Below, piece after piece: positions 2,922-29,494 of a stretch of 62,439 nucleotides of DNA (the stretch's first letter is position 1; each line of letters starts with the position of its first letter). The stretch is taken from assembly GCA_030607575.1 (NCBI GenBank), contig JAUWJS010000002.1, positions 1 to 62,439 on the forward strand, read 5' to 3'. This DNA comes from Candidatus Heimdallarchaeota archaeon. Lineage in GTDB: Archaea > Asgardarchaeota > Heimdallarchaeia > Heimdallarchaeales > Heimdallarchaeaceae. The notes below the pieces were generated by a model. The model was not told the origin of the DNA. It saw nothing but the letters and a program-made list of their open reading frames with translations, and ran no database searches. The translations under genes and the position numbers were made by a program.

Positions 2922-5900
2922 TCATTGTTTGTCCTCTACTATTGCTGTGGGGTATTCAGACAATCTGAATAATGCTTCTTTTATCGTTTCTGATAAATCT
3001 ATAATATTTGTTTCACCATTTTCTATGAGATAGGAAATTACTGCTTTCATCCCTTCAAGTACTGGACCTGTATTTTCATCAAATTTCATTCTTGCTACAA
3101 ATCCAACTATATCACTCATAACAATCAATCGATCTCTGTATTCATCCATTTCTCTCTTATAATCTGGTTCTAGATAAAGTCTGATTTCCCAATCTTTGGG
3201 GAGGCTAATTACTGAAACATTTGGAAATTTCAAGATATCCATTACTTCAGCTCTTGTTGAAAATACCTCCTTTGGGAAATCACCTAATACGATATAATAT
3301 CCATTAATATCACTTGACAATTCAAGATCGTTTTTGATGAATAAAGTACTAGTTAATCTTCCATAAGTATCAATCATCTTTGTAAAAGTATTTCCTAGAA
3401 CCCTCATGTTTAAGTAAAGATTGTTTTCAAATTCCATTCTAGAGCGACTTTTACTCCAAGCTTGAAGAACTGAATCTGCTACTCTTTTCTCACCACTTAT
3501 CATCTGATTATAGGAATCATCGATTACATATTCTGGTATTCTTCTGTATAGAAGGATTGAAATTGCGATTTCCATGAAATTCTTAGGTAATTCTGCAATT
3601 TCTTGTGGATTGATTCTGTTTACAGTATCAATAATCTCTTTAAGACTTTGTTTTTCAGAAATAGTAAGCTTTCCATATTCCAATTTTTGTATTTTGAATA
3701 CATCTCCAATCCATTTGGAAGCTTTTCTACCAACTTCTGATAAGTGAGACGACAAATTAACACTTACATCTTTTGACCAGCTTTCAACCATTTTAGTCAT
3801 CTGATCATTCAAAGGATTCCAGTTTTTGATTAACATTCTTCGTATATATTTGAGTTCTTTGAGAGATTTACTATAAAGTCTCATTGCTTTCTTTTTGTAA
3901 TTCAAATCATTTCTTCTTAGATTGGAGAATCCATTAAGTAATTCTTGTAAGATTCTATATATTTTTGGTGCATAGATATTCCAGCTTTCTTGGCATCTCT
4001 CATGGAAATTTTTCCCCCTGAATCTTTGTGGAATATCGTGTATAATTGGAAATGATGGAAAGCCGTTTTGAATATCTGGTAATCTGTGAGCTGGTGTTAG
4101 TTTTCCAGCCATTTCACGATTAAAAACAGTTATCAGAGTATCGAGTTGATGGTATACTTCTCCTTCAAAGTGAAACATTTTCTGAAGATAAGTACTAATC
4201 ATTCCTCTAAGAATTGCCTTTGAATATGCTCTTTTTAGAACTCTTGTATTTATCAGACATGTAGTAAGAAATTCTGCATCTTGTTCAGCAGCTCTAAGTG
4301 GAATAATTGTGTTAGCTAAATTTATAGTTACATTTTGCTTCTGTAACAATTCTGTTGAAGAAATAGTTCTTCCATCAAATCGAAGTTTAGTTCCTTTAAA
4401 GAATGATCTCTTTAACTGCACAGGAACTGAATTTACAAAAACTTTGATTTCTCCTTCATCAATAGCAGCACCTATGAGATCAGTGGAACTCAGATTCATT
4501 TGTTTTTGAGTTTCGTAACCTCTGCCTTTTAGATCATCCATAATTTTAGATAGAATACTAACAAAAACTGTTTTTGGGGCAATTTGTCTGAAAGAATTAA
4601 CCATAAAAGAAAAGATGTCTCCTAAGCTTGCATTAAACAGCTGGTCTTTGATAATTTTTTCTAGGGTTGTGATAATAGCTCTTTCCAAAGCACTTGCAAA
4701 TAAGACTGATTCTTCAATATTTGACAATTCTAATTGTTTACCTACACCCATAGTAATGAATTTATCAGATAGTTGCTTCAGCCACTTTGGTTGTAAAACT
4801 GTCAGTTTAGAAAGTCGTTCCTTTATCAAGGCTCTTTTTACACTGATAGAAGTTACTTTTCCTTTAGATCCTTTGCTTTTAATAGAAGAAAGTTTCTTCT
4901 CACCCAAAATGGAAAAAGTAAAATCAATAATTGCATTCCAAATACTTGGTGGTAGTTTCTTTCCTATGAAAGGTTTGATAAGTTGAGTATAAAACATTCG
5001 AGCACTTTGAAGAGCTAAAGGTGAGACATCTTCAATTAAGGCATCGCATATCATAGAACCTGGATTTGGTACTTCAGCTGCTATGGTTATCTGGTTTTGG
5101 ATTGAAGAGAAAAGGTTAACATCTCTATAATCAATTAGAGAACATAAAGGTTCATCTTTTGCTAATGCATAGACTATCTCCTTAGCTAAGTTATGAGCTA
5201 TGAATGAACTAGCAGAATGGATTTCATCAATTGTTAGTTTCTTAAGTTGAGTTACAACCTTCTTTTTCAGGTTCTTTGCAAGATATCTGTCTATCAGCTC
5301 TTGTGGCTTAATGTCTTTGCTCTTAAGATTTCTTTCAATGCTATTTCGAATTTCTTCGATTACAAACCTTGGTCGCTCATACTCAACGAGAACAAAAGGA
5401 TCCTTAATTATAATCTGATTAAGTATGTCTTGTGCTACCATTTGAACTAAAAGTTGACGTTTGAAGGGAACTATTGCTCCTTTATCCCATGAATTTTCAT
5501 CCTCTCCTAACCACGTCCTCAAATCTTTTAACTGTGCAACTGTAGGAAATTTTATCTCATCAGTTTCCAAAATTTTGATGTTTTTGTTGATTAATTCATT
5601 CAACCCCCTATTGTTCGAAGATATAGATAATTTCTGCTTTGCAATTGTACAAGCTTTCAGGAATGCTTTTGAGACAAAATCTGGTGAAATCATTTTTCCT
5701 ATAGCCATGTTTTGGTGAAAATTCGGTGTGAGAACAATAAATTTGCAGAAAGAAAGAGCCAACTCTTGAACAAGTTGCTCCTCTATTTTGCTAATCTTTC
5801 CTGGTTGGTTTGATTTTACTACATATTGAACAACTACATTATCCGCTTCTTCTGCTAAAGTGAAAGTTCCAAATTTAACATACTCATTTTCCCCAGTCAT

Positions 5901-6107
5901 AAATTGGGAATTGGTTACTTCTACTTCAGTAGTCATTAAGGTTTGTAAAGATAGTAAGATTCCTTGCATCATGCTGGAATCTTTAGCAAGACCCCCTATT
6001 GTGGCAAAACTTATACCAGCATCGCTTCCTGCTGAAATCCATAAATCATAGGGAAAGTGTTTAGACATAAACCTCACATATTGTACGTTGTAACTAAACG
6101 TTCTCAA
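2922..6107 (-). CDS. Large orphan protein (1061 aa) with longin/roadblock-like N-terminal domain and long helical body
   Basis: Uninterrupted 1061-codon ORF. Residues ~15-160 (LWISAGSDAGISFATIGGL..MMQGILLSLQTLMTTEV..YVKFGTFTLAEEADNVVVQYVVKS..EEQLVQELALSFCKF) follow the beta-beta-alpha-beta-beta-beta-alpha pattern of longin/roadblock domains. No catalytic motif recognised. Met14 (MSKHF) is an alternative start. Confidence 0.6.
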   Translation of the reverse strand: MRTFSYNVQYVRFMSKHFPYDLWISAGSDAGISFATIGGLAKDSSMMQGILLSLQTLMTTEVEVTNSQFMTGENEYVKFGTFTLAEEADNVVVQYVVKSNQPGKISKIEEQLVQELALSFCKFIVLTPNFHQNMAIGKMISPDFVSKAFLKACTIAKQKLSISSNNRGLNELINKNIKILETDEIKFPTVAQLKDLRTWLGEDENSWDKGAIVPFKRQLLVQMVAQDILNQIIIKDPFVLVEYERPRFVIEEIRNSIERNLKSKDIKPQELIDRYLAKNLKKKVVTQLKKLTIDEIHSASSFIAHNLAKEIVYALAKDEPLCSLIDYRDVNLFSSIQNQITIAAEVPNPGSMICDALIEDVSPLALQSARMFYTQLIKPFIGKKLPPSIWNAIIDFTFSILGEKKLSSIKSKGSKGKVTSISVKRALIKERLSKLTVLQPKWLKQLSDKFITMGVGKQLELSNIEESVLFASALERAIITTLEKIIKDQLFNASLGDIFSFMVNSFRQIAPKTVFVSILSKIMDDLKGRGYETQKQMNLSSTDLIGAAIDEGEIKVFVNSVPVQLKRSFFKGTKLRFDGRTISSTELLQKQNVTINLANTIIPLRAAEQDAEFLTTCLINTRVLKRAYSKAILRGMISTYLQKMFHFEGEVYHQLDTLITVFNREMAGKLTPAHRLPDIQNGFPSFPIIHDIPQRFRGKNFHERCQESWNIYAPKIYRILQELLNGFSNLRRNDLNYKKKAMRLYSKSLKELKYIRRMLIKNWNPLNDQMTKMVESWSKDVSVNLSSHLSEVGRKASKWIGDVFKIQKLEYGKLTISEKQSLKEIIDTVNRINPQEIAELPKNFMEIAISILLYRRIPEYVIDDSYNQMISGEKRVADSVLQAWSKSRSRMEFENNLYLNMRVLGNTFTKMIDTYGRLTSTLFIKNDLELSSDINGYYIVLGDFPKEVFSTRAEVMDILKFPNVSVISLPKDWEIRLYLEPDYKREMDEYRDRLIVMSDIVGFVARMKFDENTGPVLEGMKAVISYLIENGETNIIDLSETIKEALFRLSEYPTAIVEDKQ

Positions 6108-13055: not shown

Positions 13056-13925
13056 TTGAAAAATAGTAAACTAATATGTTTGACGATAATCCTTACATTC
13101 ATCATAGCTCCTGCAACAAGTAATCAAGTGACTACTATAAAAGGAGAATTTGAATTCACTGAAACATGGGACTACAAGGGGATAATTACCAGACAAAATC
13201 GCCGTGTTAGATATACCCCTATTTATGGAATTAATCCAGATATGTTAAGAACATTCATCTATTTCTTAGATGATGCCAATGATAATGATACAGCTATAGA
13301 TACTATTGTTGCATTGCATGGAATAAATCCACTACGTAATGCACCACATCACTCCCTAATATTTGAATCAACAAGTTTAGGTGCAGAATATGGATTCAAC
13401 GTAAGTTCTGAAGCAGGTATGGAATGGGTTGATGTCGAATATGATTCAGATATAGTTAATGCTAGTTCAAGTTCTTTTGACCCAGCAATAAAAGATATTT
13501 ATGATGTTGTTACAGCATCATCAAAATATTCATTACCAGAATTATATGATAATATTACTTTTCCCACTTATCTTGTTTTTCCAGTTCATATTGCCAATTT
13601 CGTCACCCAAACTGGTATAGTAGGGCATTGGAGACAAATAAATAAAGATCAGACTGTTATTAATGGTAATTTTACCACCTTTGGCGCAGATAACCCAATC
13701 TTTACTGGACCTGTGAATGAGACAGATCCGACAGATATTGCTTATCCTGAAAATCAATGGTGGCCACAATTTAATGTCACTATTGCTCAAAATGTAGAAA
13801 GAACTTCTCTTCCTCGAACACATAGCTTCCAGGTTAACTTTCCATTCACAACAATTGTTGCATCTTTGGCACTTGCTCTTGTGATATTTACATTTGTTAA
13901 GAAAAGTAGGAGGAAAACAAGATGA
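13056..13925 (+). CDS. Secreted/surface glycoprotein paralogue 1 (signal peptide, C-terminal TM anchor)
   Basis: 289 aa. Has an N-terminal hydrophobic signal (LICLTIILTFIIAPATS), 7 N-x-S/T sequons, and a C-terminal TM plus basic tail (IVASLALALVIFTFVKKSRRKTR). TTG start is preceded by GGTGGAG. Confidence 0.6.
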   Translation: MKNSKLICLTIILTFIIAPATSNQVTTIKGEFEFTETWDYKGIITRQNRRVRYTPIYGINPDMLRTFIYFLDDANDNDTAIDTIVALHGINPLRNAPHHSLIFESTSLGAEYGFNVSSEAGMEWVDVEYDSDIVNASSSSFDPAIKDIYDVVTASSKYSLPELYDNITFPTYLVFPVHIANFVTQTGIVGHWRQINKDQTVINGNFTTFGADNPIFTGPVNETDPTDIAYPENQWWPQFNVTIAQNVERTSLPRTHSFQVNFPFTTIVASLALALVIFTFVKKSRRKTR

Positions 13926-14692
13926 GAAAAATAACTCTATTCATAGTAACTCTAATGGTTACCTCTTTATTCATGTTATCATTCAACAATTCAATCAACG
14001 TTACTGCCCAAGAAACTGAAGATGAGGATTGGGATTTTACAGGTACAATGAGAATTACTAGTGATCAAAAGAGAATTCAAGTCTTTGATCCAGTAGCACA
14101 TGGATATAATGAGACATATGGTGATTTTACAACACCTTTGCTCTATATGGATGTAATAGGTTATGATACGGGTGAAGATGGAGAAATGGATATATATTAT
14201 GGATTTTATGGCACCTCTAGTCTGTTCGATTTGGCCCATATCAACTATACAACTATGAGTAATTTATTGGTAGTGAAAGTGTTTGCAAAATGGAGTTTAA
14301 GGATACCCGAAAGTTCACCTTTGGTTTGGGAAGTTCTCTATTATCCGGATCCGTTTTACGATGCTATTGCTAGTAATTTGTATCATAAAATACCAATTTA
14401 CTATGTAAATCTTACAAAAGCTGAAGGTGTTAATCTTCAGTTCAAAATTGAACTAGGGTTGAATTATACATTAGGTAATTTTACTACCTGGGGGGCAAAT
14501 AATCCAATCGTTCCATCTATGCCTACGTTTCCTGGGTATAATGTTTCTGTTCCAGTGTTTACAGCAAATTTACCTATTAGAGAAATTCAAGCCTCGCCTT
14601 TCTTCTCAGATCCACTAACTTATGTGACAATTGTAACAATGTTTTTCTTCTTGAGTTATTATGTTAAGAAGAGGGGAAAAAGAACGGGATAG
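13922..14692 (+). CDS. Secreted/surface glycoprotein paralogue 2
   Basis: 256 aa. ATGA stop/start overlap with the previous gene, and AGGAGG lies 8 nt upstream. Has a signal peptide, 8 N-x-S/T sequons and a C-terminal TM plus KKRGKRTG tail. Shares DWDFTG/TWDYKG and GNFTTWGANNPI/GNFTTFGADNPI with paralogue 1. Confidence 0.6.
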   Translation: MRKITLFIVTLMVTSLFMLSFNNSINVTAQETEDEDWDFTGTMRITSDQKRIQVFDPVAHGYNETYGDFTTPLLYMDVIGYDTGEDGEMDIYYGFYGTSSLFDLAHINYTTMSNLLVVKVFAKWSLRIPESSPLVWEVLYYPDPFYDAIASNLYHKIPIYYVNLTKAEGVNLQFKIELGLNYTLGNFTTWGANNPIVPSMPTFPGYNVSVPVFTANLPIREIQASPFFSDPLTYVTIVTMFFFLSYYVKKRGKRTG

Positions 14693-14755
14693 TAGAACAG
14701 TTTTTGATTCCCAAACATTTTTATCTTTCTTTCTATTACATCTTTATGAATTGGG

Positions 14756-15436
14756 TTGATTGGATTATCATACATTGCTTCAATATTGTTAGTCTCAATT
14801 TTTAGCTTAACACTAGCAATTTTCATAGTTATTCCAAATATCTTCAAAATTAAACAATATATTTGGCTAAGCGTGAAAATATCACTCATAGTAATTTGTG
14901 CTATTCTGGTTATCTCATTCGTTGAGACAAAAATAGACGCTTATTACTTTCTAGGAAGCTTTTTTGGTGTTGGATTTCTGATTAAAGGAATATTGATGTC
15001 TAATAGATTAAGCTTTGTTGTATTTCTAGTAAGTTTTATGTCCTTTTCGTTTGTATTTTTGTCTATTGGCAATGTAATTATGTTTGTTTTCAGTCTCTGT
15101 TTCTCCTATCTCTTCATATTTGGCATAACTGCCTTTAATTTGTATGACTCAAAAGCTAAAGAAACAATTTTGGAAGATATTAAAGGATTTCAAACTATAA
15201 GTTTTATAACTTTACTTGCTTTCCCAGTGATTACTGTATACATACTTTATTTCTTATCAGAGAATCAAGTAATATGGATAGAGAAAACATCTTTCTTCGA
15301 TTTGTTCAACAAGAACAGTGATGCAATTACTTTCCTGATTGTAGGAATTATCTTTTTGTTAACAATAACATTTGTGTTTGTTTTAGATTTACATGCTCAA
15401 GATAAGAAAAGGATGGATGAACCATGGTATTCTTAA
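14756..15436 (+). CDS. Polytopic membrane protein, unknown function (occupies the NuoJ position but is not recognisably NuoJ)
   Basis: 226 aa, almost entirely hydrophobic with about 6-7 TM segments. The TTG start is uncertain. Confidence 0.45.
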   Translation: MIGLSYIASILLVSIFSLTLAIFIVIPNIFKIKQYIWLSVKISLIVICAILVISFVETKIDAYYFLGSFFGVGFLIKGILMSNRLSFVVFLVSFMSFSFVFLSIGNVIMFVFSLCFSYLFIFGITAFNLYDSKAKETILEDIKGFQTISFITLLAFPVITVYILYFLSENQVIWIEKTSFFDLFNKNSDAITFLIVGIIFLLTITFVFVLDLHAQDKKRMDEPWYS

Positions 15437-15696
15437 GTTATCTAATTGCCCTGAGTCTCATTTGCTTCTGTTTAGGCTTGCTATTATTAATGTTCTCAAA
15501 ATCAAAAATTCAAATAAATATGAGTTTTATCTTTCTCTTTTTATCAGGTATTTTTCTTATATCTAGCTCGATTATTAGTACTGATATTGTTTTATTCTTC
15601 TTATTAGGCTTAGTTTCAATTACTATACTCTTGGCTTTTCATTTCAGAGATCAGTTATTATCAAATAATCATGTAGAAGAGGAGGGAGGAAATTGA
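15424..15696 (+). CDS. NuoK/MrpC-like small 3-TM membrane protein (degenerate)
   Basis: 90 aa with 3 TM segments. SLICFCLGLLLLMFSKSKIQ..MSFIFLFLSG aligns by eye with NuoK ILFVLGLTGLVIRRNLL..LIGLEIMINA. The two conserved membrane glutamates appear replaced (F, I/T). Confidence 0.45.
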   Translation: MVFLSYLIALSLICFCLGLLLLMFSKSKIQINMSFIFLFLSGIFLISSSIISTDIVLFFLLGLVSITILLAFHFRDQLLSNNHVEEEGGN

Positions 15697-17639
15697 ATAC
15701 CATAACTGTCTTACTAATTGCTCAAGTTTCAATTTTGATCGGTTTACCTGTATTTAGACGTCTATTAGTGTTTTCAGATAACGATAAGATTAGGGTAAGA
15801 AAAATTTATTCAAGTATTGTGTCTCTTTCTTTGGCTGGATTCTCTATTATTATATTTGCACTTACCATACATTATCTAAACGTAAATGATCTTTCAACCC
15901 TAACAGAGGAAATAACCTTATTTTCCATATCTGGATATAATTTTGCTCTCGGATTTCAATTAACTCAAATTCAAGTTCTTCTGTTTGTAGGCATTACTTC
16001 TGCTGTAGCTTTGATAAATTTCTATTTGGTATGGAGTCAGGAGAAATGGACTATTGATCAAGTAGATAGAATCTCTATTTACTCGGTGGTTTCTATTCTA
16101 GTTATCTTATCTCCAAACTTCTTTCAATTACTGTTCTTCTTAATTGTGGCTGATTTAGTCCTAATTGAATTGTTTTACAGTTTGAATCAAGAAGAAAGTA
16201 AGCAGAAGAACTTGAAGATAATGACTGCTTCATTGGGTGTTGGAGATTTCCTGATTTGTATGGCATTCATACTTCTTTTCAGAAGATCAAAAAGCTTTGA
16301 TTTTGACATTATTTTGAGTGATATTCAGTACAAATTTTTCATTTTTAAACCATATTTTATTGTTCTTTGTTGCTTGTTTCTTCTAGGTATATTAGCAAAA
16401 AGTTCTTTGTTCCCATTTCACAGCTGGCTACCTAATATTTGTTCTAAAGAATCTACCTGGAAATTTAGTCCTATAATGGTCAATATTATTCTTGGAATAT
16501 CACTCATCTTCATTTCCCCAATATACAACTTACTTGTAGTTGTGCCAAATTATTATGCTTGGTATGGTATAATATTTTCTGTAATTGCAACATTTTTCGC
16601 CATATTTCTGACAAAGGAATTTGAAAAACAGATTCTCGTTTTCACTTCTTCTGTAGGTTTGTTATTAGTTTCAATTGGAATTGGAAACCTGGCTAGTGCT
16701 TTTCAGTTTTTGATGATGTTGCCTTTTGCTTTTCTGGGCCTTGTGATTCTTTCATCAAAATCTATAAACATACACCTAGATCCTCCTACTGATCAAATAA
16801 GTAAAAAAATCATCAGATCAATAGCTAATGTTATCTTTGTTACAATTGTTATGATCTCAATAATTTCAGTAATTCCTTTTAGCAGTAGTTTACTTACTTT
16901 GGGTTATCTATTCACTTCTAATATTATAGATTTGAGTCTTCTTGTTTACATTTTAACCATTAGTTTAATTTTGGGCATAACTTTAATCTGTATTCAAATA
17001 AGTTTGAAATATTTCAAACAAAATCTCTTCATGAAACTAAGATTTTCAGAGTTGTTTCCACTTATAATGATTCTAGTTTTCTTATCAGCAATTAGTGTTC
17101 TCTATCCTTTTTATAACATTTTAAATCCATTTTCATTACCTCTTAATTTCTCCCAGGAAAGCCTTTTCATTGCTCTTATCCCAATTTTTGTAGGATGGTT
17201 TGTTATCCTTGTTTCATACATTGTTATTGAGTTATTTGCTGAAAAATTCTTAATATATCTCAAAAAATTTTCAACTAAGATTCAGGAACAATTGAGTAAA
17301 ATATACTATTTCGAATTTATTTTCTCACCTATTAATTGGGTAATTGTTCAAATCATAATTCCTTCAGCAATCTGGTTTTATGTAAATGTGATTAGAGGTT
17401 TTATTTACAAGGTTATAATAGTCAGTATCTTCAAATTTTTCTTCTATCTAGCAAACCTCGTTAAGGATTTTGTAACTAATGTTGCAGTTCCACGTACTGT
17501 AAATTTCTTTAAGAGAAGCTCTCAGTTTATTCAAAGCTTGGAAAGTGCTAAACTAAAAACTCAGCTACTTTATATAATCCTAGGACTTGGGATAATGTTT
17601 GCTATTACAATTATTCTTTATGCTGGAGGTATAATCTGA
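15693..17639 (+). CDS. NuoL/MrpA-like antiporter-type membrane subunit (divergent)
   Basis: 648 aa. LGILAKSSLFPFHSWLPN matches the GAxGKSAQxPLHxWLP core of PF00361-type subunits. FALGFQLTQIQVLLFVGITSAVALINFY matches the N-terminal NuoL pattern. The C-terminus (YYFEFIFSPINW ... LESAKLKTQLLYIILGLG) resembles the NuoL lateral helix plus final TM. TTG start is preceded by GAGGAGGGAGGA. Confidence 0.6.
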   Translation: MNTITVLLIAQVSILIGLPVFRRLLVFSDNDKIRVRKIYSSIVSLSLAGFSIIIFALTIHYLNVNDLSTLTEEITLFSISGYNFALGFQLTQIQVLLFVGITSAVALINFYLVWSQEKWTIDQVDRISIYSVVSILVILSPNFFQLLFFLIVADLVLIELFYSLNQEESKQKNLKIMTASLGVGDFLICMAFILLFRRSKSFDFDIILSDIQYKFFIFKPYFIVLCCLFLLGILAKSSLFPFHSWLPNICSKESTWKFSPIMVNIILGISLIFISPIYNLLVVVPNYYAWYGIIFSVIATFFAIFLTKEFEKQILVFTSSVGLLLVSIGIGNLASAFQFLMMLPFAFLGLVILSSKSINIHLDPPTDQISKKIIRSIANVIFVTIVMISIISVIPFSSSLLTLGYLFTSNIIDLSLLVYILTISLILGITLICIQISLKYFKQNLFMKLRFSELFPLIMILVFLSAISVLYPFYNILNPFSLPLNFSQESLFIALIPIFVGWFVILVSYIVIELFAEKFLIYLKKFSTKIQEQLSKIYYFEFIFSPINWVIVQIIIPSAIWFYVNVIRGFIYKVIIVSIFKFFFYLANLVKDFVTNVAVPRTVNFFKRSSQFIQSLESAKLKTQLLYIILGLGIMFAITIILYAGGII

Positions 17640-19135
17640 TGAGTTATCCACTTTCATTCTTGTACGATTTCCTACCTCTTGAAATTCTTCTACTGGGAAT
17701 CATCTTAATTATCGGTTTGGGGTCATTCTCTTCTAAGATTATCAAAAAATTCCCGTTTCTTATGACAAGGATGAGAATTGTTTATGGTTATATTGCTCTT
17801 ATTTCAAGTATTATTGCAGTTATAGTGTATAGCTACATATATACACCAATAGATAGTACTTATGTAATTGCATTTAATTTGACCATAACAGCTTTTACTT
17901 CAGGACTATTTTATGCTGTTTCATTTGCTATCATTATTGGGATTTTCTTATCTATTGTTGAAATAGAGTTGAAATTTAGGAAAAGCTATATGCTTTTTGT
18001 CTCTTTGCTTTTAATAGAATCCAGTACTATATTCATTACTGCTGCAAATTCATTGGTGTTCGTTTTCTTTGGTTTTGTATTGGTTTTTACTGGAATGAAT
18101 TTCTTTATAAGAAACTTTACATCAACAATGCCCGATAAAAAGAAATCTTTCATCGGGAACTATCTAACTTTGAGTAGTTTAGCTCTATCTTTATTGTTTA
18201 TAGGTTTTGCAGCTCATTCCCTTTCAGGAAATTCCTTTCTATTGTCAATAGAAAACACCACATTACGTCTTTGGGAGTTCATAAGCGAGATATTCATAGT
18301 ATCTGGATTATTAGTTCTAGTTGGAGGTCCTCCTTTCCACTTTATCTTTTTTGAATCGGAGAATGAGAAATTTAATGCAATAACACAGATAATTCTTTCA
18401 GTTCAGAAAGGTTTGACCTTAGCTTTCTTAATTAAATATACTTTAACTATTGCAGAATCATCATTTTCAGTAGTTTTGATTTGGTTATTCACGGTTTGTG
18501 GGGTTGTCTATGTTCTTTGGGGAGTATTGGCTTCCATGACAGTAAAAAGATTACAGAAATTAGTACACTATATCAGCATCATATTTGTGGGGATAATACT
18601 TCTTATTTTATCCGATTTATTTTCTCCCATCCTCACAGAAGAATTGATAAATCTAACATTGAAGACTGCATTTTATGGAGTACTGGCATTTATTCTTTCG
18701 TTAACATTTTCTATATCCTCAATAGGTGTAATTTCAAAGGGTTTCAAATCAGATGAAATACAAATTTTAAGAGAAGTTGGAAGAAATTCTATTTCTCAAT
18801 TCCTTATACTGGTACTTAATGTACTATTAATGTTTGCTGCACCTTCATCAATACTTCTCGTCTCTCAGAAAATTGTTTTTCCTGATTTCTTCTCGCCAAG
18901 AATGTATGCTACAGCTGTGATTCTTCTTTTAGGCGTGGTTTTTTCATTAGTCTATCTTATTAGGTTGCTAAGATCTATCTTCTTTATTCCAATTCAGAGA
19001 AGTCAAGAGTTCTCTTCACCTGAACCAGCAGTGTTTATAGGCTCTTTTATTGCTCTGATTCTTATAGTTGCTGTGGTGATTTTTATAAAACAATTCTTAG
19101 TTTTCTGCAGTTTGATTTGGATAAACCTAGTTTAG
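17639..19135 (+). CDS. NuoN/MrpD-like antiporter-type membrane subunit (highly degenerate)
   Basis: 498 aa polytopic protein. GGPPFHFIFFES corresponds to the (K)xxxxPFHxWxPD core, but the preceding Lys and following acidic/Pro residues are lost. ATGA overlap with the upstream gene, and GGAGGT lies 8 nt upstream. Confidence 0.45.
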   Translation: MSYPLSFLYDFLPLEILLLGIILIIGLGSFSSKIIKKFPFLMTRMRIVYGYIALISSIIAVIVYSYIYTPIDSTYVIAFNLTITAFTSGLFYAVSFAIIIGIFLSIVEIELKFRKSYMLFVSLLLIESSTIFITAANSLVFVFFGFVLVFTGMNFFIRNFTSTMPDKKKSFIGNYLTLSSLALSLLFIGFAAHSLSGNSFLLSIENTTLRLWEFISEIFIVSGLLVLVGGPPFHFIFFESENEKFNAITQIILSVQKGLTLAFLIKYTLTIAESSFSVVLIWLFTVCGVVYVLWGVLASMTVKRLQKLVHYISIIFVGIILLILSDLFSPILTEELINLTLKTAFYGVLAFILSLTFSISSIGVISKGFKSDEIQILREVGRNSISQFLILVLNVLLMFAAPSSILLVSQKIVFPDFFSPRMYATAVILLLGVVFSLVYLIRLLRSIFFIPIQRSQEFSSPEPAVFIGSFIALILIVAVVIFIKQFLVFCSLIWINLV

Positions 19136-19159
19136 CAATTTCGACAATTCAATAAGTTT

Positions 19160-20164
19160 TTGAATATAGACACTCGAATTAACTTGATTGGAGTGACTTC
19201 TACTAAGCTGAATCTTCCATTAGAGGTAGATCAAATAAATTCTTACCTATCTGATTTAAGAAATCATAGTCCATTTGATGATGAAATCAATGATTTAATT
19301 GATCAAATTCTTCAAAATGGCGGTAAAAGGATTAGACCTCTAATCTGCCTTCTTTCATTTGAGATGATATCAAATGAACAGCGCAATGATACGAGTTTAG
19401 CTGCAGCTTGTTCTCTAGAAGTTATTCATAATGCATCACTGTTAATTGATGATATTTTCGATAAAGATATTTTTCGAAGAAAAGAAAAATCTTTCTACTT
19501 AAAATATTCCACTTTCGCAGCACTTTCAATTTCTTATTCCCTAAGTAGTTTAGCATTAAGCTTAGCTTCTAAAACTAACGTTATTGAAATAGTTGATGAG
19601 TTAATTAAGGCAATTCATATACTATCAACTTCATTATTTTTAGAGCAAAAATTCCGGTCTGGAAAGAATAAGATGACTCAAGAGGAAGCGCTTCAGCTAA
19701 TTGATAGAAAAACTTCAAGTTTATTTGAAGCAGCCTCTGTTATTGGCGTTCTTCTAGGAAATAGCTCAAAAAAGGATAGAGAATCTATGAAGCTCTTTGG
19801 GAAATTATTTGGAAGGGCATTTCAATTGAAAGATGATTATTTCTCTTTGACTTCTGAGCAGAATGATTTGGGAAAATCAGGTGTTTGGACTGATATCTCG
19901 AACCGTATTCAAACCTATATAGTTTTAGAAGCAATGGATCTGGTCTCTCCTGATGAGAAGGAAATTTTAAATGACTATTATATTGATAAGAAAGACTTTC
20001 CAACTGAAAAAATTAAATCTATACTTGTAAATTCTGGAGCTCTTGAAATAGTAAAGAATCAAATATCTCAGTATATCAGTGAAGCAATTGCGATTCTTAA
20101 TATGTTTTCTAAAAGTCCTTCAAGAGATAAATTAATCGAAATAACAAATCTTTTACACATTTAA
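19160..20164 (+). CDS. trans-Polyprenyl diphosphate synthase family protein with atypical second Asp-rich motif
   Basis: 334 aa. GGKRIRP; first Asp-rich motif EVIHNASLLIDDIFD; second motif reads FQLKDDYFS (DDxxS rather than DDxxD) followed by LGKSG. TTG start, no in-frame ATG nearby. Confidence 0.7.
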   Translation: MNIDTRINLIGVTSTKLNLPLEVDQINSYLSDLRNHSPFDDEINDLIDQILQNGGKRIRPLICLLSFEMISNEQRNDTSLAAACSLEVIHNASLLIDDIFDKDIFRRKEKSFYLKYSTFAALSISYSLSSLALSLASKTNVIEIVDELIKAIHILSTSLFLEQKFRSGKNKMTQEEALQLIDRKTSSLFEAASVIGVLLGNSSKKDRESMKLFGKLFGRAFQLKDDYFSLTSEQNDLGKSGVWTDISNRIQTYIVLEAMDLVSPDEKEILNDYYIDKKDFPTEKIKSILVNSGALEIVKNQISQYISEAIAILNMFSKSPSRDKLIEITNLLHI

Positions 20165-20179
20165 AAAAAGAAGTAGGAA

Positions 20180-21259
20180 CTATTCAGATCTAATTCCTTG
20201 TATATACTCACTAAACCAGATATGTGCTGTGTATCTATCTGTTGTAACAGGCGGAGCTTTGAACCCATAAGCACAGATTGAACTTATTGGACCACTTCCT
20301 GCTCGATTAATAGCTACTTTTGTTGCTCTTATTACATCTACAAGGGTTCCCGCAGCATTAGGACCATCTAAAGTTTCTAATCTAATATCTATTTTAACTG
20401 GCATCTCCATGAATCCTTCTCCTAGTATCCAGAAATGACCCACGCGCCTATTTCCTAAGAATTCCAAATAATCTGAAGTCCCACTTGCAAGATTAATATC
20501 ATTGCCAAAAGATTGTTTAATGCTCCTTTCTTTTACTTCACGTTTGTATTGTTTTCTATCATCATCAAGTGTATTCAGCGTATCAAGCCCCCCAGCAACA
20601 TCTAGTTGATAAGTGTCTTTTATAATAACCCCTTGTTCCCTTAAAACATCTAGAAACCCTTTATGAAGAACAGTTCCTCCAGCTAAGGATTGTAAATCAT
20701 CACCTAGAACACATACATTTGCTTTTTTGAATTTTCTTGCCCAACTAGGGTTGTTAGCAATACTAGTAGGTGTACAATTTATGAATGCTACTTCTGCATC
20801 AAGAGCTGCTTGAGCATATGTTTCAACGGCATTTTCTGCACCTGAAGGAAGAGCACAAATAAGAATCTCAGATTCTGAATCCTTTAATATTTCAACAACA
20901 TTTGCTTCAGAACCCTCTGCTACCTTTATGACTTCAAGCAGATGATTTGAAAGACCATCCTTCAAAGGTCCTTTATGAACTTTAACATTGGTCTTTTCAA
21001 CTTTCACAAATTGGGGAGTACTATTGATTGGTGCAAATATAGCCTCTTCTAAATCTTTTCCGACCTTATCAGTATCAACATCAAAAGCAGCAACAATTCG
21101 AATATTCTTAGCTTCATAACTACTGATTTTCGGATAAAGAAGTTTTTCCTTTTTATCTTCAAAGATATTAAGATAATTAATGCCTTGAAGTAAACCTGAA
21201 GCAATATTCCCGATACCGGCGATTGCTATTTTTATAACGTCATTTTTCACCATTAACAC
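20180..21259 (-). CDS. Inositol-3-phosphate synthase-like paralogue (divergent)
   Basis: 359 aa, collinear with the upstream ino1 (IAIAGIGNIASGLLQG, LGDDLQSLAGGTVLH, GPNAAGTLVDVIR). Substitutions fall at positions conserved in the canonical copy (GDDIKSQ -> GDDLQSL; NIGGNTDF -> DVAGGLDT). Confidence 0.6.
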   Translation of the reverse strand: MLMVKNDVIKIAIAGIGNIASGLLQGINYLNIFEDKKEKLLYPKISSYEAKNIRIVAAFDVDTDKVGKDLEEAIFAPINSTPQFVKVEKTNVKVHKGPLKDGLSNHLLEVIKVAEGSEANVVEILKDSESEILICALPSGAENAVETYAQAALDAEVAFINCTPTSIANNPSWARKFKKANVCVLGDDLQSLAGGTVLHKGFLDVLREQGVIIKDTYQLDVAGGLDTLNTLDDDRKQYKREVKERSIKQSFGNDINLASGTSDYLEFLGNRRVGHFWILGEGFMEMPVKIDIRLETLDGPNAAGTLVDVIRATKVAINRAGSGPISSICAYGFKAPPVTTDRYTAHIWFSEYIQGIRSE

Positions 21260-21260
21260 C

Positions 21261-22367
21261 TCAGTTAGTTATTTCTCCTCTTATGAATTTTTCAACGAGT
21301 TCTTTAGCTTCTGAATCTCTTATTTGTTCAGGAGGATGCTTAAAGAAGTAACTAGAAACTCCTATTAGAGGACCACCAATATTTCTATCTAATGCAATTT
21401 TCAAAGATCTTATTACATCGATCATAACACCAGCACTATTAGGTGAATCTTGCACACTCAATTTTAGCTGAGCTGTAATAGGTTGTTCCCCAAAGTTCCT
21501 ACCTTTTAACCAAAGATAACATATTTTTTCATCATCTAGAAAGGGAACATAATCAGAAGGGCCAATTCTAGTAGGAACTTCATAAGGTAACATGCTTGTA
21601 ACAGCTTCAGTTTTTGAAATTCTCTTTGTAGTTAGTCTGTATTCCTTTTTCATGTTTTCGAAATCTGTATTTCCACCAATATTCAGTTGAAAAGTTTCAT
21701 CCAGCTTTATTCCTCTATCATGAGCTAGTGAAACAAGAACACGATGTAATATTGTTGCACCAAGCTGAGATTTTATATCATCTCCTGCAACAGGTATATT
21801 CTTATCAGTGAATTTTTGACCCCATTCAGGTTTTGAAGCTATAAATGCTGGAATTCCATTTGCAAAAGCTACGTTTGTATCTAATGCAGCTTGTGCATAA
21901 ACTTTTGATGCTTCTTCACTTCCTACAGGAAGGAAGTTGACTAACACATCTGCATTAGATTCTTTTAAAGTATCTACAATATTTACAGGTTGCATTTCTG
22001 AGGGATCATAACAGTGAAATGATTCCATCATATGTGGAGCAACTCCATCATTAATAGGACCAGGTTTAACAGTAATTCCCTTATGAGGGACATCTGAAAA
22101 CTTATTACAGACATTAGGACTTTGCCAGATAGCCTCAGATATATCTTTACCAATCTTCTTAGTGTTAACCTCAAAAGCAGCTACTACTTCAACATCTGAA
22201 ATATGATACTCACCAAACCTAACATGCATAATCCCGGGTACGAAATCGTTCTCATCAGCATTTTGGTAATATTCTAAACCTTGTACCAGAGCTGATGCAC
22301 AGTTACCAAGACCAGCAATTGCTACTTTAACTTTTTTCGACATGAGTTCACCCTTTTCTTCAAACAC
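21261..22367 (-). CDS. ino1: myo-Inositol-3-phosphate synthase
   Basis: 368 aa. VAIAGLGNCASALVQGLEYY, GIMHVRFGEYH, YLPVGSEEASKVYAQAALD, GDDIKSQLGATILHRVL, ISKTEAVTS and DSPNSAGVMIDVIR closely parallel bacterial/archaeal Ino1 such as the mycobacterial enzyme. Confidence 0.85.
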   Translation of the reverse strand: MFEEKGELMSKKVKVAIAGLGNCASALVQGLEYYQNADENDFVPGIMHVRFGEYHISDVEVVAAFEVNTKKIGKDISEAIWQSPNVCNKFSDVPHKGITVKPGPINDGVAPHMMESFHCYDPSEMQPVNIVDTLKESNADVLVNFLPVGSEEASKVYAQAALDTNVAFANGIPAFIASKPEWGQKFTDKNIPVAGDDIKSQLGATILHRVLVSLAHDRGIKLDETFQLNIGGNTDFENMKKEYRLTTKRISKTEAVTSMLPYEVPTRIGPSDYVPFLDDEKICYLWLKGRNFGEQPITAQLKLSVQDSPNSAGVMIDVIRSLKIALDRNIGGPLIGVSSYFFKHPPEQIRDSEAKELVEKFIRGEITN

Positions 22368-22438
22368 GAAAATTAATTTGAACTAATTGAGCAAAGGAAC
22401 GTTATGCTTTTAAAAAGTTTTACCCTATATATGTTAAT

Positions 22439-23359
22439 ATGTCCTCAAAAAGAAAAACTATTCTCATTACTGGTGGGTTAGGACAAATTGGATATTACCT
22501 TTATGAGGAATTAAAGAGTCAATATAATCTCTGCATACTAGATAATAAATCAACATCCAAATTTGAACCTCCAGAAGATGTTATTTTTATTGAAGGTGAT
22601 ATCGTAGATAGTGAGGTTTTTTCAAAACTTCCTGAGATTGATTTTGTGATTCACCTAGCAGCACAAATCAGTATTGAGAAATCTACTCAATCTCCACTTT
22701 TTGATGCAGAAATCAATGTAATGGGGACTTTAAATGTTTTAGAATATGCTTTAAAACAGAATGTTCAGAAATTCATTTATATCAGCTCTGCGGCAATCTT
22801 TGGGCATCCAGAATCCCTTCCAATTACTGAAGACCATCCTAGAAATCCACTTTCTCCATATGGTTTGAGCAAGTCAGTAGCAGAGAAATATGTCAAGCTT
22901 TTTTCAGAACTATATAACCTGAATACTGCTATAGTTATTCCTTTTAATTTGTACAGCCCAATTCAAGCTGAAGATGATCCCTATGCTGGTGTAATTTACA
23001 AATTCATTAAACAAGTGAAACAAGGAAAACCACCCATTATTCAAGGAAAAGGTGACCAATCAAGAGATTTTGTGCATGTTAAGGATGCGGCTAAAGCTAT
23101 AAAACTAGTTCTTGAAGCTGTCAAAGGAGATATTACCATGTTTAATATTGGCTCAGGTAAATCAACCACAATAAATGATTTGGCTAAATTAATTATTGAA
23201 ATCAGTGGAAAAGATTTAGTCCCTCAGTATACAGATGCAAGACTAGGGGACATTGACCATAGTTACTCTTCAATTGACTGTGCAAAGAGAGAACTGAACT
23301 ATAATCCGGTTATTACTTTAAAAGAAGGTTTAGAAGAACTCTATTTGAAGCTGCAATAA
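22439..23359 (+). CDS. NAD-dependent sugar-nucleotide epimerase/dehydratase (GalE-like)
   Basis: 306 aa. Rossmann motif ILITGGLGQIGYYL and catalytic YGLSK (YxxxK); extended-SDR length. Confidence 0.75.
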   Translation: MSSKRKTILITGGLGQIGYYLYEELKSQYNLCILDNKSTSKFEPPEDVIFIEGDIVDSEVFSKLPEIDFVIHLAAQISIEKSTQSPLFDAEINVMGTLNVLEYALKQNVQKFIYISSAAIFGHPESLPITEDHPRNPLSPYGLSKSVAEKYVKLFSELYNLNTAIVIPFNLYSPIQAEDDPYAGVIYKFIKQVKQGKPPIIQGKGDQSRDFVHVKDAAKAIKLVLEAVKGDITMFNIGSGKSTTINDLAKLIIEISGKDLVPQYTDARLGDIDHSYSSIDCAKRELNYNPVITLKEGLEELYLKLQ

Positions 23360-23406
23360 ATTTCTTTTGTTACAAAAAGTAAAAATATAACTTATTCTTT
23401 ATAATA

Positions 23407-25215
23407 TTGATGCCAGATTTTGTTATCGATACAAATTTCTATATTAGTGGGTTTCAAACTTTACCTAATACATTCTCCAAATTTGCTAAAGCTTCCAAAG
23501 CTCTCAAATTTGAAATTTATATGACATCCTATATTAAGAATGAAATGAGGTTTTTTCTTCAAAGGGAAATTACACCTCATGTAAAAATAGTAGATGTAGA
23601 TCATTCGGAATTTCAAAAGTTTCTTCACAAAGTGCATAAACATACAACAAACCTTCCACAAAAACCAGATTTGTCTGTCATTTACTTAGCTGATAAATTG
23701 GGTGCAACTATTGTGAGTAGTGATTTAAAGCTTCTAGAAACAGCTGAATTGATTGGAATTCCAACACATACAAACAGCGCATTCACCAAATTTATTCTTG
23801 AAGAGAACAAAGACCCTACTTTGAATTCATTTCTTAAAGAACTGGAGAATAAGTTGCTGACGGCAGAAATTCGATATTCAATTGAGAGTACAAACAGATA
23901 TGATCCAGTAAAAAGAATTAGAAAAATAATAGATTCTGCAATATCTGTTATTAGGAGTGAATATGAAGAAAAAATGACACAGTTGGCTCAAAGTGATTTA
24001 CCTGAAACAGATGGTTTTTCAATTGAATCCTTACAATTAAAGGAGCTCCTTACTGAAGTTCAAAGTGATTTACAACGCTTAGAAGATGATTTTAACTCAG
24101 GTAAATATATGGAATTAGAAGCTGAATTATTAGCTAGAATTCGAGAAATAACTGACTATTTAGTGGATTGGAAACTTGCTATTGATAATATAGAAGATCA
24201 CATAATCTATAATGAATCTCTTCAACTTTTAGGTCGACTACATTATTTGTCTTGCATCAGTTTAGTTGAAAATAAGAAAGTTGATCTTGCGAGAGTCTAC
24301 ATGGATAAATTGATCATGATATTATTACAAAACTCAGAAGCAAACGAAAAATATGGAATAGATGTTCATTTCTTGCGGATGATTATTTTACTTTTATCAG
24401 GACAATTTCAGAGATTGAATTCCTACTTCACTCCAGCTTTTGAGGATGAATGTAACGAATACCAGAGAGCTGATGTTGTCAATGTTATAAGGGCACTAAT
24501 CTTGCTAACTGTTATTCTAGGAGGGGAAAAAGCAGTAGAAACAGCTAAAGATTATGATTATGATAACATTGAATTTATCAATCAACTTGGGTTTAAATTC
24601 ATGCAGTTAGAAGATTTACAGAAAGCTGCTTTAATGTTTGAGCAAACCTTTTACCTTTCTCTTAATTCCAAAAATAGAGGATTATGTATTGCTAGCTTAG
24701 AATATCTAAGTTGGTTATATTTCTCTGGTTTTCATCCAGCTAAATCAGTCATTCAAAATCTATATGAAATTTTGATTAAGAAATTTCCAGAGATCAAATC
24801 TAGTTATCAAGTCAGTTTACAGGTTACAAGTAAACCCAAAGATTTAGAGAATTTCACTTCATCTACATATCAACCTCTTTCTGCACTAGCAATAGATTTG
24901 AAATCTCCTCTTTATTGCGTAGGAATCTCTTATATGAAAGAGAAAAACAAAATCAAGCCATTAATTAAAGTGATGAACTGGGGGATGATGGCTAGAATTG
25001 GCATTATAGATGAGAATCAAGAATTAGTTCGAAATTCAACTCTTGGTAATACTATTCATCTTATTGATGGTAAATTCAAAATTGTACCTGCTTCATCCCA
25101 TTTTAGAAAACAACATGATGTAGAGTTGATTTTGCATATAGACCACGTTTCCCAGCCAACAATATTGTGTAGATCTCCTGGAGGATGGGAGTTAACAACT
25201 ATTGCTGACGAGTGA
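23407..25215 (+). CDS. PIN-domain protein with coiled-coil, helical-repeat and C-terminal beta-rich regions (unknown function)
   Basis: 602 aa. The N-terminal ~135 aa look like a PIN fold (FVIDTNFY, NEMRFF, IVSSDLKLLETAELIGIP). The rest has no recognised motif. The likely true start is ATG at 23410. Confidence 0.5.
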   Translation: MMPDFVIDTNFYISGFQTLPNTFSKFAKASKALKFEIYMTSYIKNEMRFFLQREITPHVKIVDVDHSEFQKFLHKVHKHTTNLPQKPDLSVIYLADKLGATIVSSDLKLLETAELIGIPTHTNSAFTKFILEENKDPTLNSFLKELENKLLTAEIRYSIESTNRYDPVKRIRKIIDSAISVIRSEYEEKMTQLAQSDLPETDGFSIESLQLKELLTEVQSDLQRLEDDFNSGKYMELEAELLARIREITDYLVDWKLAIDNIEDHIIYNESLQLLGRLHYLSCISLVENKKVDLARVYMDKLIMILLQNSEANEKYGIDVHFLRMIILLLSGQFQRLNSYFTPAFEDECNEYQRADVVNVIRALILLTVILGGEKAVETAKDYDYDNIEFINQLGFKFMQLEDLQKAALMFEQTFYLSLNSKNRGLCIASLEYLSWLYFSGFHPAKSVIQNLYEILIKKFPEIKSSYQVSLQVTSKPKDLENFTSSTYQPLSALAIDLKSPLYCVGISYMKEKNKIKPLIKVMNWGMMARIGIIDENQELVRNSTLGNTIHLIDGKFKIVPASSHFRKQHDVELILHIDHVSQPTILCRSPGGWELTTIADE

Positions 25216-25268
25216 ATTGAAACTAATACTTCCGAAATTCTTTTTATAGTTAATGCAGAAGAGAACAT

Positions 25269-25988
25269 ATGGAAGTAGTTGAAACAGGGATAATTGGATT
25301 AGATGGAATTCTTGGTGGGGGACTACCTAAAGGGAGAACCATTCTAGTTGCAGGCCCTGCTGGAGCCGGAAAATCTACATTTGGCATGCAATTTCTTTAT
25401 CATGGTATCGTATCAGGTGGAGAAAGTGGAATTTTTGTTTCATTCGATGAACATCCCGAACATGTACGAGAAGAAGCTTTGAATTTTGGTTGGAACCTAA
25501 ATGATATTGAAAAGGATAATCTACTTGTAATTATTGATGGTTTTAGCCCTAGAGCTGGAGTCAGTTCAGAAGAGGAATATCAAACACCTGTAGATGTTGA
25601 CGAACTTATTACTCAGTTAGTAGAAATAATTGATAAGACTTCAGCTGAAAGAGTTGTCATTGACAGTATAACAGCTTTAGCTTTATCTATGACAGATGAA
25701 CAACAAATCAGGAAACAAATTCTCAAACTCAGTGCAGTTATGTCTTCTTTAGAATGTACAACTGTCTTAACAAGTGAAATGAGAAGTGGAGTAGTAAGTA
25801 GATTTGGTGTTGAAGAATTCATGAGTCAAGGAGTTATAGTCTTGAATTATGAATATAGAAATAATGTTGCCATACGCAGTATGAATATCCGCAAAATGCG
25901 TGGCTTGAAGCACGAAATGTCTGAAAGACCATTTTCTATAACTCCAAATGGTATAGAAGTTTATGCAAGTGAGCAATTCTACTTTTAG
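25269..25988 (+). CDS. RecA-superfamily ATPase, single-domain KaiC/aRadC-like
   Basis: 239 aa. GIIGLDGILGGGLPKG, Walker A VAGPAGAGKST and Walker B RVVIDSITAL; typical archaeal KaiC-like size. Confidence 0.75.
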   Translation: MEVVETGIIGLDGILGGGLPKGRTILVAGPAGAGKSTFGMQFLYHGIVSGGESGIFVSFDEHPEHVREEALNFGWNLNDIEKDNLLVIIDGFSPRAGVSSEEEYQTPVDVDELITQLVEIIDKTSAERVVIDSITALALSMTDEQQIRKQILKLSAVMSSLECTTVLTSEMRSGVVSRFGVEEFMSQGVIVLNYEYRNNVAIRSMNIRKMRGLKHEMSERPFSITPNGIEVYASEQFYF

Positions 25989-26059
25989 TTTTATCGTAAA
26001 ATCTAGCCGTTGATAGTAAGATTTAAAATAAGCTGTAAGATGCACCAGATAGTGATTAA

Positions 26060-26278
26060 ATGGGTAATATTCGAACAAGCCAAGTAAAACGGTTATCCAA
26101 ACAAATTGTAAGAGATTTTCATGACCAACTCAATACAGAATTTGAAAACAACAAACATGTAGTTGAAGAAGTTTGTACCACAATGTCTAAGAAGATGCGA
26201 AACCTGATAGCTGGGTATGTTACACGCATTATGAGACAATTCAAAGATCAAAAAATACAAGTTTTAGAAGAACTCTAA
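26060..26278 (+). CDS. rps17e: Ribosomal protein eS17
   Basis: 72 aa. MGNIRTSQVKRLSKQIV...FENNKHVVEE...KKMRNLIAGYVTRIM parallels the eukaryotic/archaeal S17e consensus (MGRVRTKTVKK...NKRVCEE...KKLRNKIAGYVTHLM). Confidence 0.9.
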   Translation: MGNIRTSQVKRLSKQIVRDFHDQLNTEFENNKHVVEEVCTTMSKKMRNLIAGYVTRIMRQFKDQKIQVLEEL

Positions 26279-26369
26279 GTTCATTATTAGATTCTTTTTA
26301 TCTACTCTTTCTTAAGAAAGCATATGATTCAAGGAAAATATATATACTGACAGAAAGAGACACCCTTCA

Positions 26370-28109: not shown

Positions 28110-28199
28110 CTTCTATTCCTATTATTTTGTCCATTCGAATAGCACTAAACACTGGAAATTTAGGAAAAAGATATTAACTTAGTAGCCGAAAATCTTATC

Positions 28200-29447: not shown

Positions 29448-29494
29448 ATGTTAAACTAGAGAAAATATGAAAAACTTTTATTCTAATCTGTTTA

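Follow-up and report, generated by a model that had tools for sequence, protein, structure and literature searches.

The stretch of DNA analysed here (the window), 62,439 nucleotides of contig JAUWJS010000002.1 from a Candidatus Heimdallarchaeota archaeon genome (assembly GCA_030607575.1), encodes on its minus strand a large protein that the initial annotation, made from the sequence alone, had presented as an orphan with a longin- or roadblock-like N-terminus. On balance, this is probably a cytosolic protein of ~1,050 residues, specific to Heimdallarchaeia, in which a longin head would act as a dimerising docking platform and be followed by a helical scaffold body. The part of this proposal held with the highest confidence concerns residues 1-146 (the head), which very likely constitute a longin domain that is cryptic at the sequence level. 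The element order in a structural model, the matches obtained in two structure libraries, and a remote profile-profile match all uphold the longin-type N-terminus that had first been suggested.

A full-length model of the protein was obtained with AlphaFold2 (AF2) from an alignment of 25 sequences, with a mean predicted local distance difference test score (pLDDT) of 82.1 and a predicted template modelling score (pTM) of 0.64. In this model, the head consists of strands b1 (residues 8-15) and b2 (20-25), helix a1 (32-46), strands b3 (57-60), b4 (64-73), and b5 (76-85), and helices a2 (94-111) and a3 (117-146), giving the order b-b-a-b-b-b-a-a, with no helix before b1. Longin domains are defined by a five-stranded antiparallel sheet, the order b1-b2-a1-b3-b4-b5-a2-a3, the absence of any helix ahead of b1, and an additional helix at the C-terminus (PMC10933270), and this is the element order seen in the modelled head. 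The three segments that had been singled out from the sequence correspond to modelled elements, namely GILLSLQTLMTTEV to helix 32-46, YVKFGTFTLAEE..VVVQYVVKS to the hairpin 64-73/76-85, and EEQLVQELALSFCKF to helix 94-111.

Conservation is higher in the head than anywhere else in the protein. Positions W10, G18, G25, L38, E48, F56, G59, G67, and G124 are conserved family-wide (G18, G25, E48, and G67 being the invariant ones within residues 1-150), and the best-kept elements are the b1-b2 hairpin, helix 1, and the strands from b3 to b5. These are the elements that, in longin and roadblock proteins already known, provide the dimer interface and the face that binds a GTPase or a helix.

Structural comparison with Foldseek also points to a longin fold. 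When the full-length model was searched against the Protein Data Bank (PDB), more than 30 of the top 50 matches were longin or roadblock domains, with probabilities of 0.8-1.0 and target-normalised template modelling (TM) scores of 0.34-0.54, and nearly all the high probabilities among these best 50 were theirs. For example, Sec22b (1ifq) was returned with a probability of 1.00 and a TM score of 0.45, and LAMTOR subunits reached TM scores of up to 0.54. The list further includes dynein LC7, Ykt6, Lst4, synbindin, Fuzzy/Inturned, Mon1-Ccz1, GATOR1, and C9orf72-SMCR8, as well as two Asgard proteins, the Lokiarchaeal longin 8yqg and the Thorarchaeal roadblock 7f8m. Whole-chain matches (JetABC, RNF213, RyR1) had probabilities of 0.06 or less. 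In the viral library BFVD, the top high-probability domain match was a giant-virus longin protein (0.98). The longin matches are assigned to the N-terminus because the longin element order is found there and because the C-terminal part in isolation returns none: a poor model of residues 860-1048 alone (pLDDT 52.6) gave no longin, roadblock, or DENN domain among the 50 matches listed, with probabilities no higher than 0.28 (MutS, I-DmoI). The initial annotation had named the lack of a longin fold, or homology to a defence or phage protein, as grounds for dropping its proposal; structure prediction and Foldseek returned a longin fold, and neither PADLOC nor the viral structure library returned such homology.

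Chains of PAS/LOV and phytochrome type also occur in the Foldseek list, with probabilities of 0.13-0.57, and PAS-, GAF-, and profilin-type folds have a core in common with longin and roadblock domains. The head might, on these grounds, be a sandwich of this type that senses small molecules or signals, which would make the protein a sensor. Such an assignment is very unlikely, given that the longin and roadblock matches are more numerous and reach probabilities of 0.8-1.0 in both libraries, that the elements follow the longin order, that the head has a profile link to a longin-like family, and that the protein is devoid of an output domain.

This profile link emerged from A5, a head profile that covers close as well as distant members of the family and was scanned over 400 sampled Asgard genomes. 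Its matches lie only in the family's own open reading frames (ORFs) of ~950-1080 aa (shorter where contigs are cut), never in a head alone, and a single marginal extra match fell on the C-terminal domain of a 740-aa winged helix-turn-helix (wHTH) protein from another Asgard lineage. The longin-like domain of that wHTH protein (~125 aa) is found in 390 of the 400 genomes, typically in ten or more copies per genome, most of them C-terminal in large multidomain proteins. The element order predicted for the domain is longin-like, and its helix 1 carries the motif D-x-x-L-[IL]-x-G-F-L-x-A-I-x-x-F. About 20 ORFs of the genome studied here carry the domain, for instance C40:38354-44299 (a 1982-aa ORF), C40:21034-21711, and C117:4218-4946; L068:3457-5679 (minus strand) is an example from another Asgard genome.

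Alignment of A5 with the pan-Asgard domain (alignments from 16-30 genomes) using hhalign yielded a Prob of 89.9-92.5% and an E-value of 5e-7 to 2e-6, over about 100 columns running from b2 to helix 2 (b2-a1-b3-b4-b5-a2). An independent alignment of 12 own-genome paralogues of the domain gave a Prob of 82.8%. As controls, the reversed head profile scored 0.1-0.2%, 30 column shuffles at most 3.6%, and other segments of the same protein below 1%. No Pfam model matches the pan-Asgard domain above threshold, Fuz_longin_1 and SLM4 giving weak matches only; nevertheless, five of the six sub-threshold Fuz_longin_1 matches in the own genome (the best at 24.4 bits, for a cut-off of 26.1) fall on ORFs that carry the domain. 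Because of the hhalign link and of these sub-threshold matches, the head is best described, at the level of sequence profiles, as a far-diverged member of an Asgard longin-like clade, with Fuz_longin_1 as its nearest curated relative. The pan-Asgard domain itself probably belongs to the asCOGs that Liu et al. 2021 (bioRxiv 10.1101/2020.10.19.343400) assign to the 'Roadblock/LC7 superfamily'. The analysis thus draws attention to a very abundant Asgard longin-like domain with no above-threshold Pfam model.

Several observations weigh against the proposed reading. At the sequence level, hmmscan with the whole protein, nine distant members, and 18 N-terminal domains returned no longin or roadblock family at E<=1, the curated models considered being Longin PF13774, Fuz_longin_1 PF19036, Robl_LC7 PF03259, Sybindin, and others. 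Scans of the own genome with PF19036 and PF13774 did not match the studied gene, and the hhalign link needs a broad profile, as close homologues alone (profile A4) give a Prob of 0.3-3%. Regarding structure, all Foldseek E-values are 0.08 or higher, none reaching 1e-3, and the best matches have target-normalised TM scores of only 0.43-0.54. The Foldseek output carries no query coordinates, and placing the matches on the N-terminus relies on the element order and on a subtraction that uses the poor isolated C-terminal model (pLDDT 52.6). Helix 1 and the loop following it have moderate to low pLDDT values (51-66), and the ~900 residues after the head, about 85% of the protein, have no recognisable relative. 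Two further points concern the functional part. GTPase-activating protein (GAP)-type longins (FLCN, SMCR8, C9orf72, NPRL2) carry a catalytic arginine finger and, in their b1-b2 loop, a GP motif (PMC12290439). In the head, this loop is G14-S15-D16-A17-G18 (GSDAG), with no GP motif, and the family alignment contains no conserved Arg in residues 1-146, so a GAP-type longin was rejected. Moreover, at the loci compared, the gene shows no linkage to a GTPase, roadblock, or longin gene.

Searches of sequence libraries were otherwise negative. The protein has no family or chain match in Pfam, NCBIfam, PADLOC (0 families), or the PDB sequences, in agreement with the statement that it contains no enzymatic motif. 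The PDB sequence searches used the single protein and the profiles A1, A2, A5, and A6; their sole matches are compositional and confined to residues ~590-790, where apolipoproteins, syntaxin Habc, Cog5, and other helical bundles appear with E-values of 1e-5 or weaker, in the PDB only. No transmembrane segment was detected (Kyte-Doolittle values stay at or below 1.27 in every 19-residue window), no segment of the protein has a paralogue in the own genome, and comparison of all segment pairs, including the head and the C-terminal module, revealed no internal duplication.

In the proposed mechanism, the head would dimerise through helix 1 and the edge of its sheet, as eukaryotic and Asgard longin and roadblock proteins do. 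The result could be a homodimer, or a dimer with one of the ~20 longin-like or 7 roadblock proteins of the genome, and a partner helix or a small Arf-, Rab-, or Rag-like GTPase would dock on its surface. A scaffold role, positioning other factors, would fall to the large helical body, and the conserved C-terminal helix would be a candidate for an intramolecular or partner contact. By analogy, a GTPase-linked role of the protein can be put forward tentatively; a function in trafficking, as a factor for guanine nucleotide exchange (GEF), or in GTPase regulation would be carried over from longin domains elsewhere. In the most specific version of this proposal, a single chain specific to Heimdallarchaeia would regulate an Asgard GTPase of the Arf, Rab, or Rag type, or provide it with a docking platform; a Mon1/Fuzzy-type head, the unique helical body, the alpha/beta module, and the conserved C-terminal helix would work together in it, making the protein an archaeal counterpart, and possibly a relative, of the tri-longin GEFs or longin-DENN complexes. 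In this complete form, the proposal is improbable.

The main rival to a GTPase platform is an adaptor or structural role. The protein would then work independently of GTPases, its head oligomerising or clamping a partner helix, and its body forming a scaffold of cytoskeletal, tethering, or membrane-associated type. Such clamping is known from LC7-type roadblocks, which hold the dynein intermediate chain or LAMTOR1, and longin SNAREs fold back on their own helix; in the protein studied here, the conserved, low-confidence C-terminal helix could likewise dock on the head. The body consists of long helices, with weak matches only to amphipathic bundles (apolipoproteins, syntaxin Habc, Cog5), the gene has no linked GTPase gene, the catalytic motifs of GAP-type longins are absent, and longin and roadblock domains are also known in roles unrelated to GTPases (PMC10933270). 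However, the bundle matches are compositional, the top Foldseek matches include no CATCHR or SNARE structure, and no transmembrane segment or lipid-anchor signal is present. Overall, this alternative is somewhat unlikely.

The gene itself is real. At the codon level, the ratio of nonsynonymous to synonymous substitution rates (dN/dS) against five orthologues is 0.05-0.15 overall and 0.03-0.08 in the head, which means strong purifying selection over the entire gene, far beyond chance expectation. Its GC content is like that of its surroundings. As reported initially, an uninterrupted frame fills exactly positions 2922-6107 of the window; the proposed start, and hence the length of 1061 aa, had to be revised. 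Translation could begin at the earliest with a TTG at 6107, and an ATG lies further in, at 6068. All 25 full-length homologues begin with M-[ST]-K at the position of this ATG (their lengths ranging from 1029 to 1062 aa), a GAGG lies 3 nt upstream of it (6075-6072), and the 13 extra N-terminal residues that the TTG start would add are not conserved. Because the homologue starts and lengths and the GAGG all point to the ATG at 6068, this is likely the true start, and the protein has, on this comparative evidence, 1048 aa rather than 1061. It was rightly called the longest ORF of the window without an intein, since the sole longer one, an 1862-aa ORF at 53210-58798 (minus strand), encodes an archaeal MCM helicase interrupted by inteins, with matches to Intein_splicing in three stretches, plus LAGLIDADG_3 and Hint. 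A gene for an EAP30 protein is present elsewhere in the window.

The designation 'orphan' does not survive wider searches. A collection of 5.8 billion proteins yielded 25 full-length homologues with 47-96% identity. A phmmer scan with the single sequence against 1.84 billion cluster representatives returned 31 matches, all of them family members or fragments and none eukaryotic, and added distant relatives of ~1000 aa with 22-26% identity over their full length. A second, word-indexed search with the family profile A2 reached no wider than the first. All named members are annotated 'hypothetical protein', and their metagenome-assembled genomes are labelled Heimdallarchaeota, Heimdallarchaeaceae, or Kariarchaeaceae, with a few members under inconsistent submitter labels such as Thor or Odin.

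Scanned over the 400 Asgard genomes, A2 matches 69. In the four GTDB families of the window's own order (f1-f4), nearly every genome has the protein at full length, usually in one copy. In a fifth family of the same class, Heimdallarchaeia (f5), nearly every genome has it as well; the ORFs there measure ~970 aa and are best conserved over their N-terminal ~420 residues. From families f6-f7, also of this class, the scan returned no match, and from the rest of the phylum five weak ones (E about 1e-6), which fall on the helical stretch 593-780. One copy each is present in two closed genomes, those of Ca. Heimdallarchaeum endolithica and aukensis. Two or three paralogues occur in some genomes (G041-G043 of family f3, and G050), almost all others having one. 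This is, therefore, a core, vertically inherited, essentially single-copy gene, of a family specific to Heimdallarchaeia. The restriction to Asgard lineages, which had been proposed as a check, was found: orthologues occur only in Asgard archaea of the Heimdall group.

One distant member, P0028 (1808 aa, from ENA contigs of up to 2.85 Mb), is a tandem fusion, in which a second copy, devoid of the longin head and of the first ~340 residues, comes after a complete one (residues 6-1028). Its arrangement suggests that residues ~350-1048 may form a separable structural unit. P0028 was also considered as an informative fusion partner, and rejected, its second half being a partial copy of the same protein. 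Three apparent stand-alone heads (P0052-P0054) were discarded as contig-end fragments.

A large, unannotated, lineage-restricted protein with a partial tandem duplication in one member (P0028) could also belong to an anti-virus defence system or a mobile element. This origin is extremely unlikely: PADLOC gives no match, the body has no viral structural match, and the gene is single-copy and near-universal in its order, with a divergence that follows taxonomy, strong purifying selection, native composition, and housekeeping neighbours.

Downstream of the head, the AF2 model shows two all-helical regions, a small insert, an alpha/beta module, and a tail (Table 1). Region I and the head are the best-conserved part in the most distant members, which match residues ~4-420 best. 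Within region I, a Lys-rich loop, KKLSSIKSKGSKGKVTSISVKRALIKERLSK (residues 391-420, window positions 4809-4898, minus strand), has the lowest pLDDT inside the body; close homologues keep its basic character and not its sequence, distant members do not have it, and it may be in contact with a membrane or a nucleic acid. Region II is made of long helices (625-654, 688-715, 724-767, 877-910), with a conserved Pro-rich loop at 655-687. The initial description of about 700 aa of helical sequence between two modules holds as to its helical nature, over about 770 residues; it is interrupted by the beta-rich insert at 541-590.

Table 1. Features of the gene and of its predicted protein, with positions in the window.
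Feature	Residues	Window positions	Strand	Basis and remarks
Gene for the 1048-aa protein		2922..6068	-	ORF, orthologue starts and lengths, dN/dS; stop codon 2922-2924
13 in-frame codons upstream of the ATG, probably 5' leader		6069..6107	-	Extension in no homologue
N-terminal domain, very likely longin-type	1-146	5631..6068	-	AF2 model, Foldseek, hhalign, dN/dS
All-helical region I, about 20 helices	147-540	4449..5630	-	AF2 model
Small beta-rich insert, six short strands	541-590	4299..4448	-	AF2 model; no paralogue or family match
All-helical region II	591-912	3333..4298	-	AF2 model
C-terminal alpha/beta module	913-1017	3018..3332	-	AF2 full-length model, pLDDT 82-93
C-terminal tail	1018-1048	2925..3017	-	pLDDT below 60; dN/dS 0-0.15

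A second alpha/beta module at the C-terminus had been proposed as well, and the last ~135 aa are indeed alpha/beta in the AF2 model, where the C-terminal segments singled out from the sequence coincide with strands and helices. The module has strands 918-920, 923-932, 951-955, and 959-965, arranged in two hairpins (918-932 and 951-965), two short helices (939-945, 968-975), and a long one (984-1017). Because this part is modelled so poorly in isolation (pLDDT 52.6), the prediction suggests that the module needs the remainder of the protein. At the profile level it resembles neither the head nor the longin-like family, and Foldseek gave no meaningful match by which to assign its fold. In the tail, nine residues are invariant in the 25 close homologues (I1023, D1024, E1027, K1030, E1031, F1034, S1037, Y1039, P1040), which makes it a candidate partner-binding or fold-back helix.

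As regards the genomic neighbourhood, close relatives keep the neighbours seen in the window: a DUF211 gene upstream on the other strand, and genes for a YggS-type pyridoxal phosphate (PLP) protein and a short-chain dehydrogenase/reductase (SDR) downstream, followed, beyond the SDR, by pyruvate:ferredoxin oxidoreductase and ABC transporters. A 48%-identical orthologue has different neighbours. At its locus (L003, GCA_054001415.1), HMG-CoA reductase and PNP/UDP phosphorylase lie on one side, and an epimerase, four unannotated ORFs, a polyprenyl synthase, and two inositol-1-phosphate synthases on the other. The same annotations are found 7-24 kb off in the window (13056-30337), so that, rearrangement notwithstanding, the family retains a loose regional linkage. 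When 18 loci from five GTDB families were compared all against all, no neighbour family was in common beyond within-genus synteny. The own genome (2.5-Mb, 88%-complete) contains seven Roadblock/LC7 (PF03259) genes, on contigs C21, C74, C99, C180, C161, C48, and C35, none of them near the studied gene.

Longin and roadblock domains are eukaryotic platforms for the GTPase switches of membrane traffic and nutrient signalling. Most of the Asgard examples described so far are small, are fused to a GTPase, or can be recognised from their sequence. The present family differs in being a large core gene of a whole order, with a head that is invisible to Pfam and NCBIfam and another 85% without a known relative. 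The discovery of a partner GTPase would turn the family into a tractable, conserved test case for how longin platforms worked before eukaryotes; if there is none, a longin domain would have been recruited to a different conserved cellular function. Should the role of regulator or platform prove true, such a regulator would be part of the core gene set of an Asgard lineage placed close to eukaryotes.

The Asgard Roadblock/longin superfamily is well documented, with 130 asCOGs in Liu et al. 2021 (bioRxiv 10.1101/2020.10.19.343400), and structures of Asgard longin and roadblock proteins are available (PMC10933270). The architecture reported here, a cryptic N-terminal longin domain on a large unmatched body, encoded by a core gene, appears to be undescribed, none having been found in a full-text literature search. 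What is new is also the profile-profile link that would connect the head with the pan-Asgard domain.

The best structural matches are Sec22b (1ifq), Ykt6 (3bw6), synbindin (2zmv), and LAMTOR2/3, with Foldseek probabilities of 0.95-1.00 and TM scores of 0.34-0.54, and longin SNAREs and TRAPP longins have the same b-b-a-b-b-b-a-a order. TRAPP and Ragulator subunits are small single-domain proteins. The window protein has no sequence similarity to the SNARE, TRAPP, and Ragulator proteins and no transmembrane anchor. Identification as a longin SNARE (Sec22b, Ykt6, VAMP7; ~200 aa, with a SNARE motif and then a transmembrane or lipid anchor) was rejected for a protein of 1048 aa without a membrane anchor. 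Roadblock domains begin with a helix before b1 and follow the order a-b-b-a-b-b-b (PMC10933270). As the head has no such helix and no Pfam match, a roadblock/LC7 identity (MglB, LAMTOR, PF03259) was rejected too, and the 'roadblock-like' label fits neither its element order nor its sequence. An hhalign comparison of the head with the roadblock proteins of the own genome gave a Prob of 0.2%, a weak control, as three of the seven sequences were wrong-strand fragments.

With longin-DENN proteins (FLCN/FNIP, SMCR8/C9orf72), NPRL2/3 of GATOR1, and Heimdallarchaeial FLCN-like proteins, the window protein has in common a longin head and a distant C-terminal alpha/beta module. In contrast to longin-DENN proteins, its 770 intervening residues are ordered helices and not a disordered linker; no DENN match was found in Pfam, nor among the 50 Foldseek matches of the poor isolated C-terminal model.

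Fuz_longin_1 (PF19036) represents the first longin domain of Mon1, Fuzzy, and HPS1, which are tri-longin Rab-GEF subunits, marked by three consecutive longin domains, a heterodimeric partner, and nucleotide exchange on a Rab. It is the curated model nearest to the domain family of the head, and Fuzzy/Inturned and Mon1-Ccz1 are in the Foldseek list. However, the window protein has one longin domain instead of three, a helical body, and no match to PF19036. A tri-longin protein (Mon1/Ccz1, Fuzzy/Inturned, HPS1/HPS4) was rejected, as the longin order occurs only in residues 1-146 and no other segment resembles the head; with a single longin domain, the 'Mon1/Ccz1-type' pattern seen initially had to be abandoned.

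The pan-Asgard domain is usually C-terminal, multicopy, and found in varied multidomain proteins, whereas the head is N-terminal, single-copy, and always attached to one ~900-aa body. The two are too diverged to be linked by HMMER, apart from the one marginal match in 400 genomes. They nevertheless have the same element order, keep a Gly within the b1-b2 hairpin, and begin helix 1 with an acidic residue.

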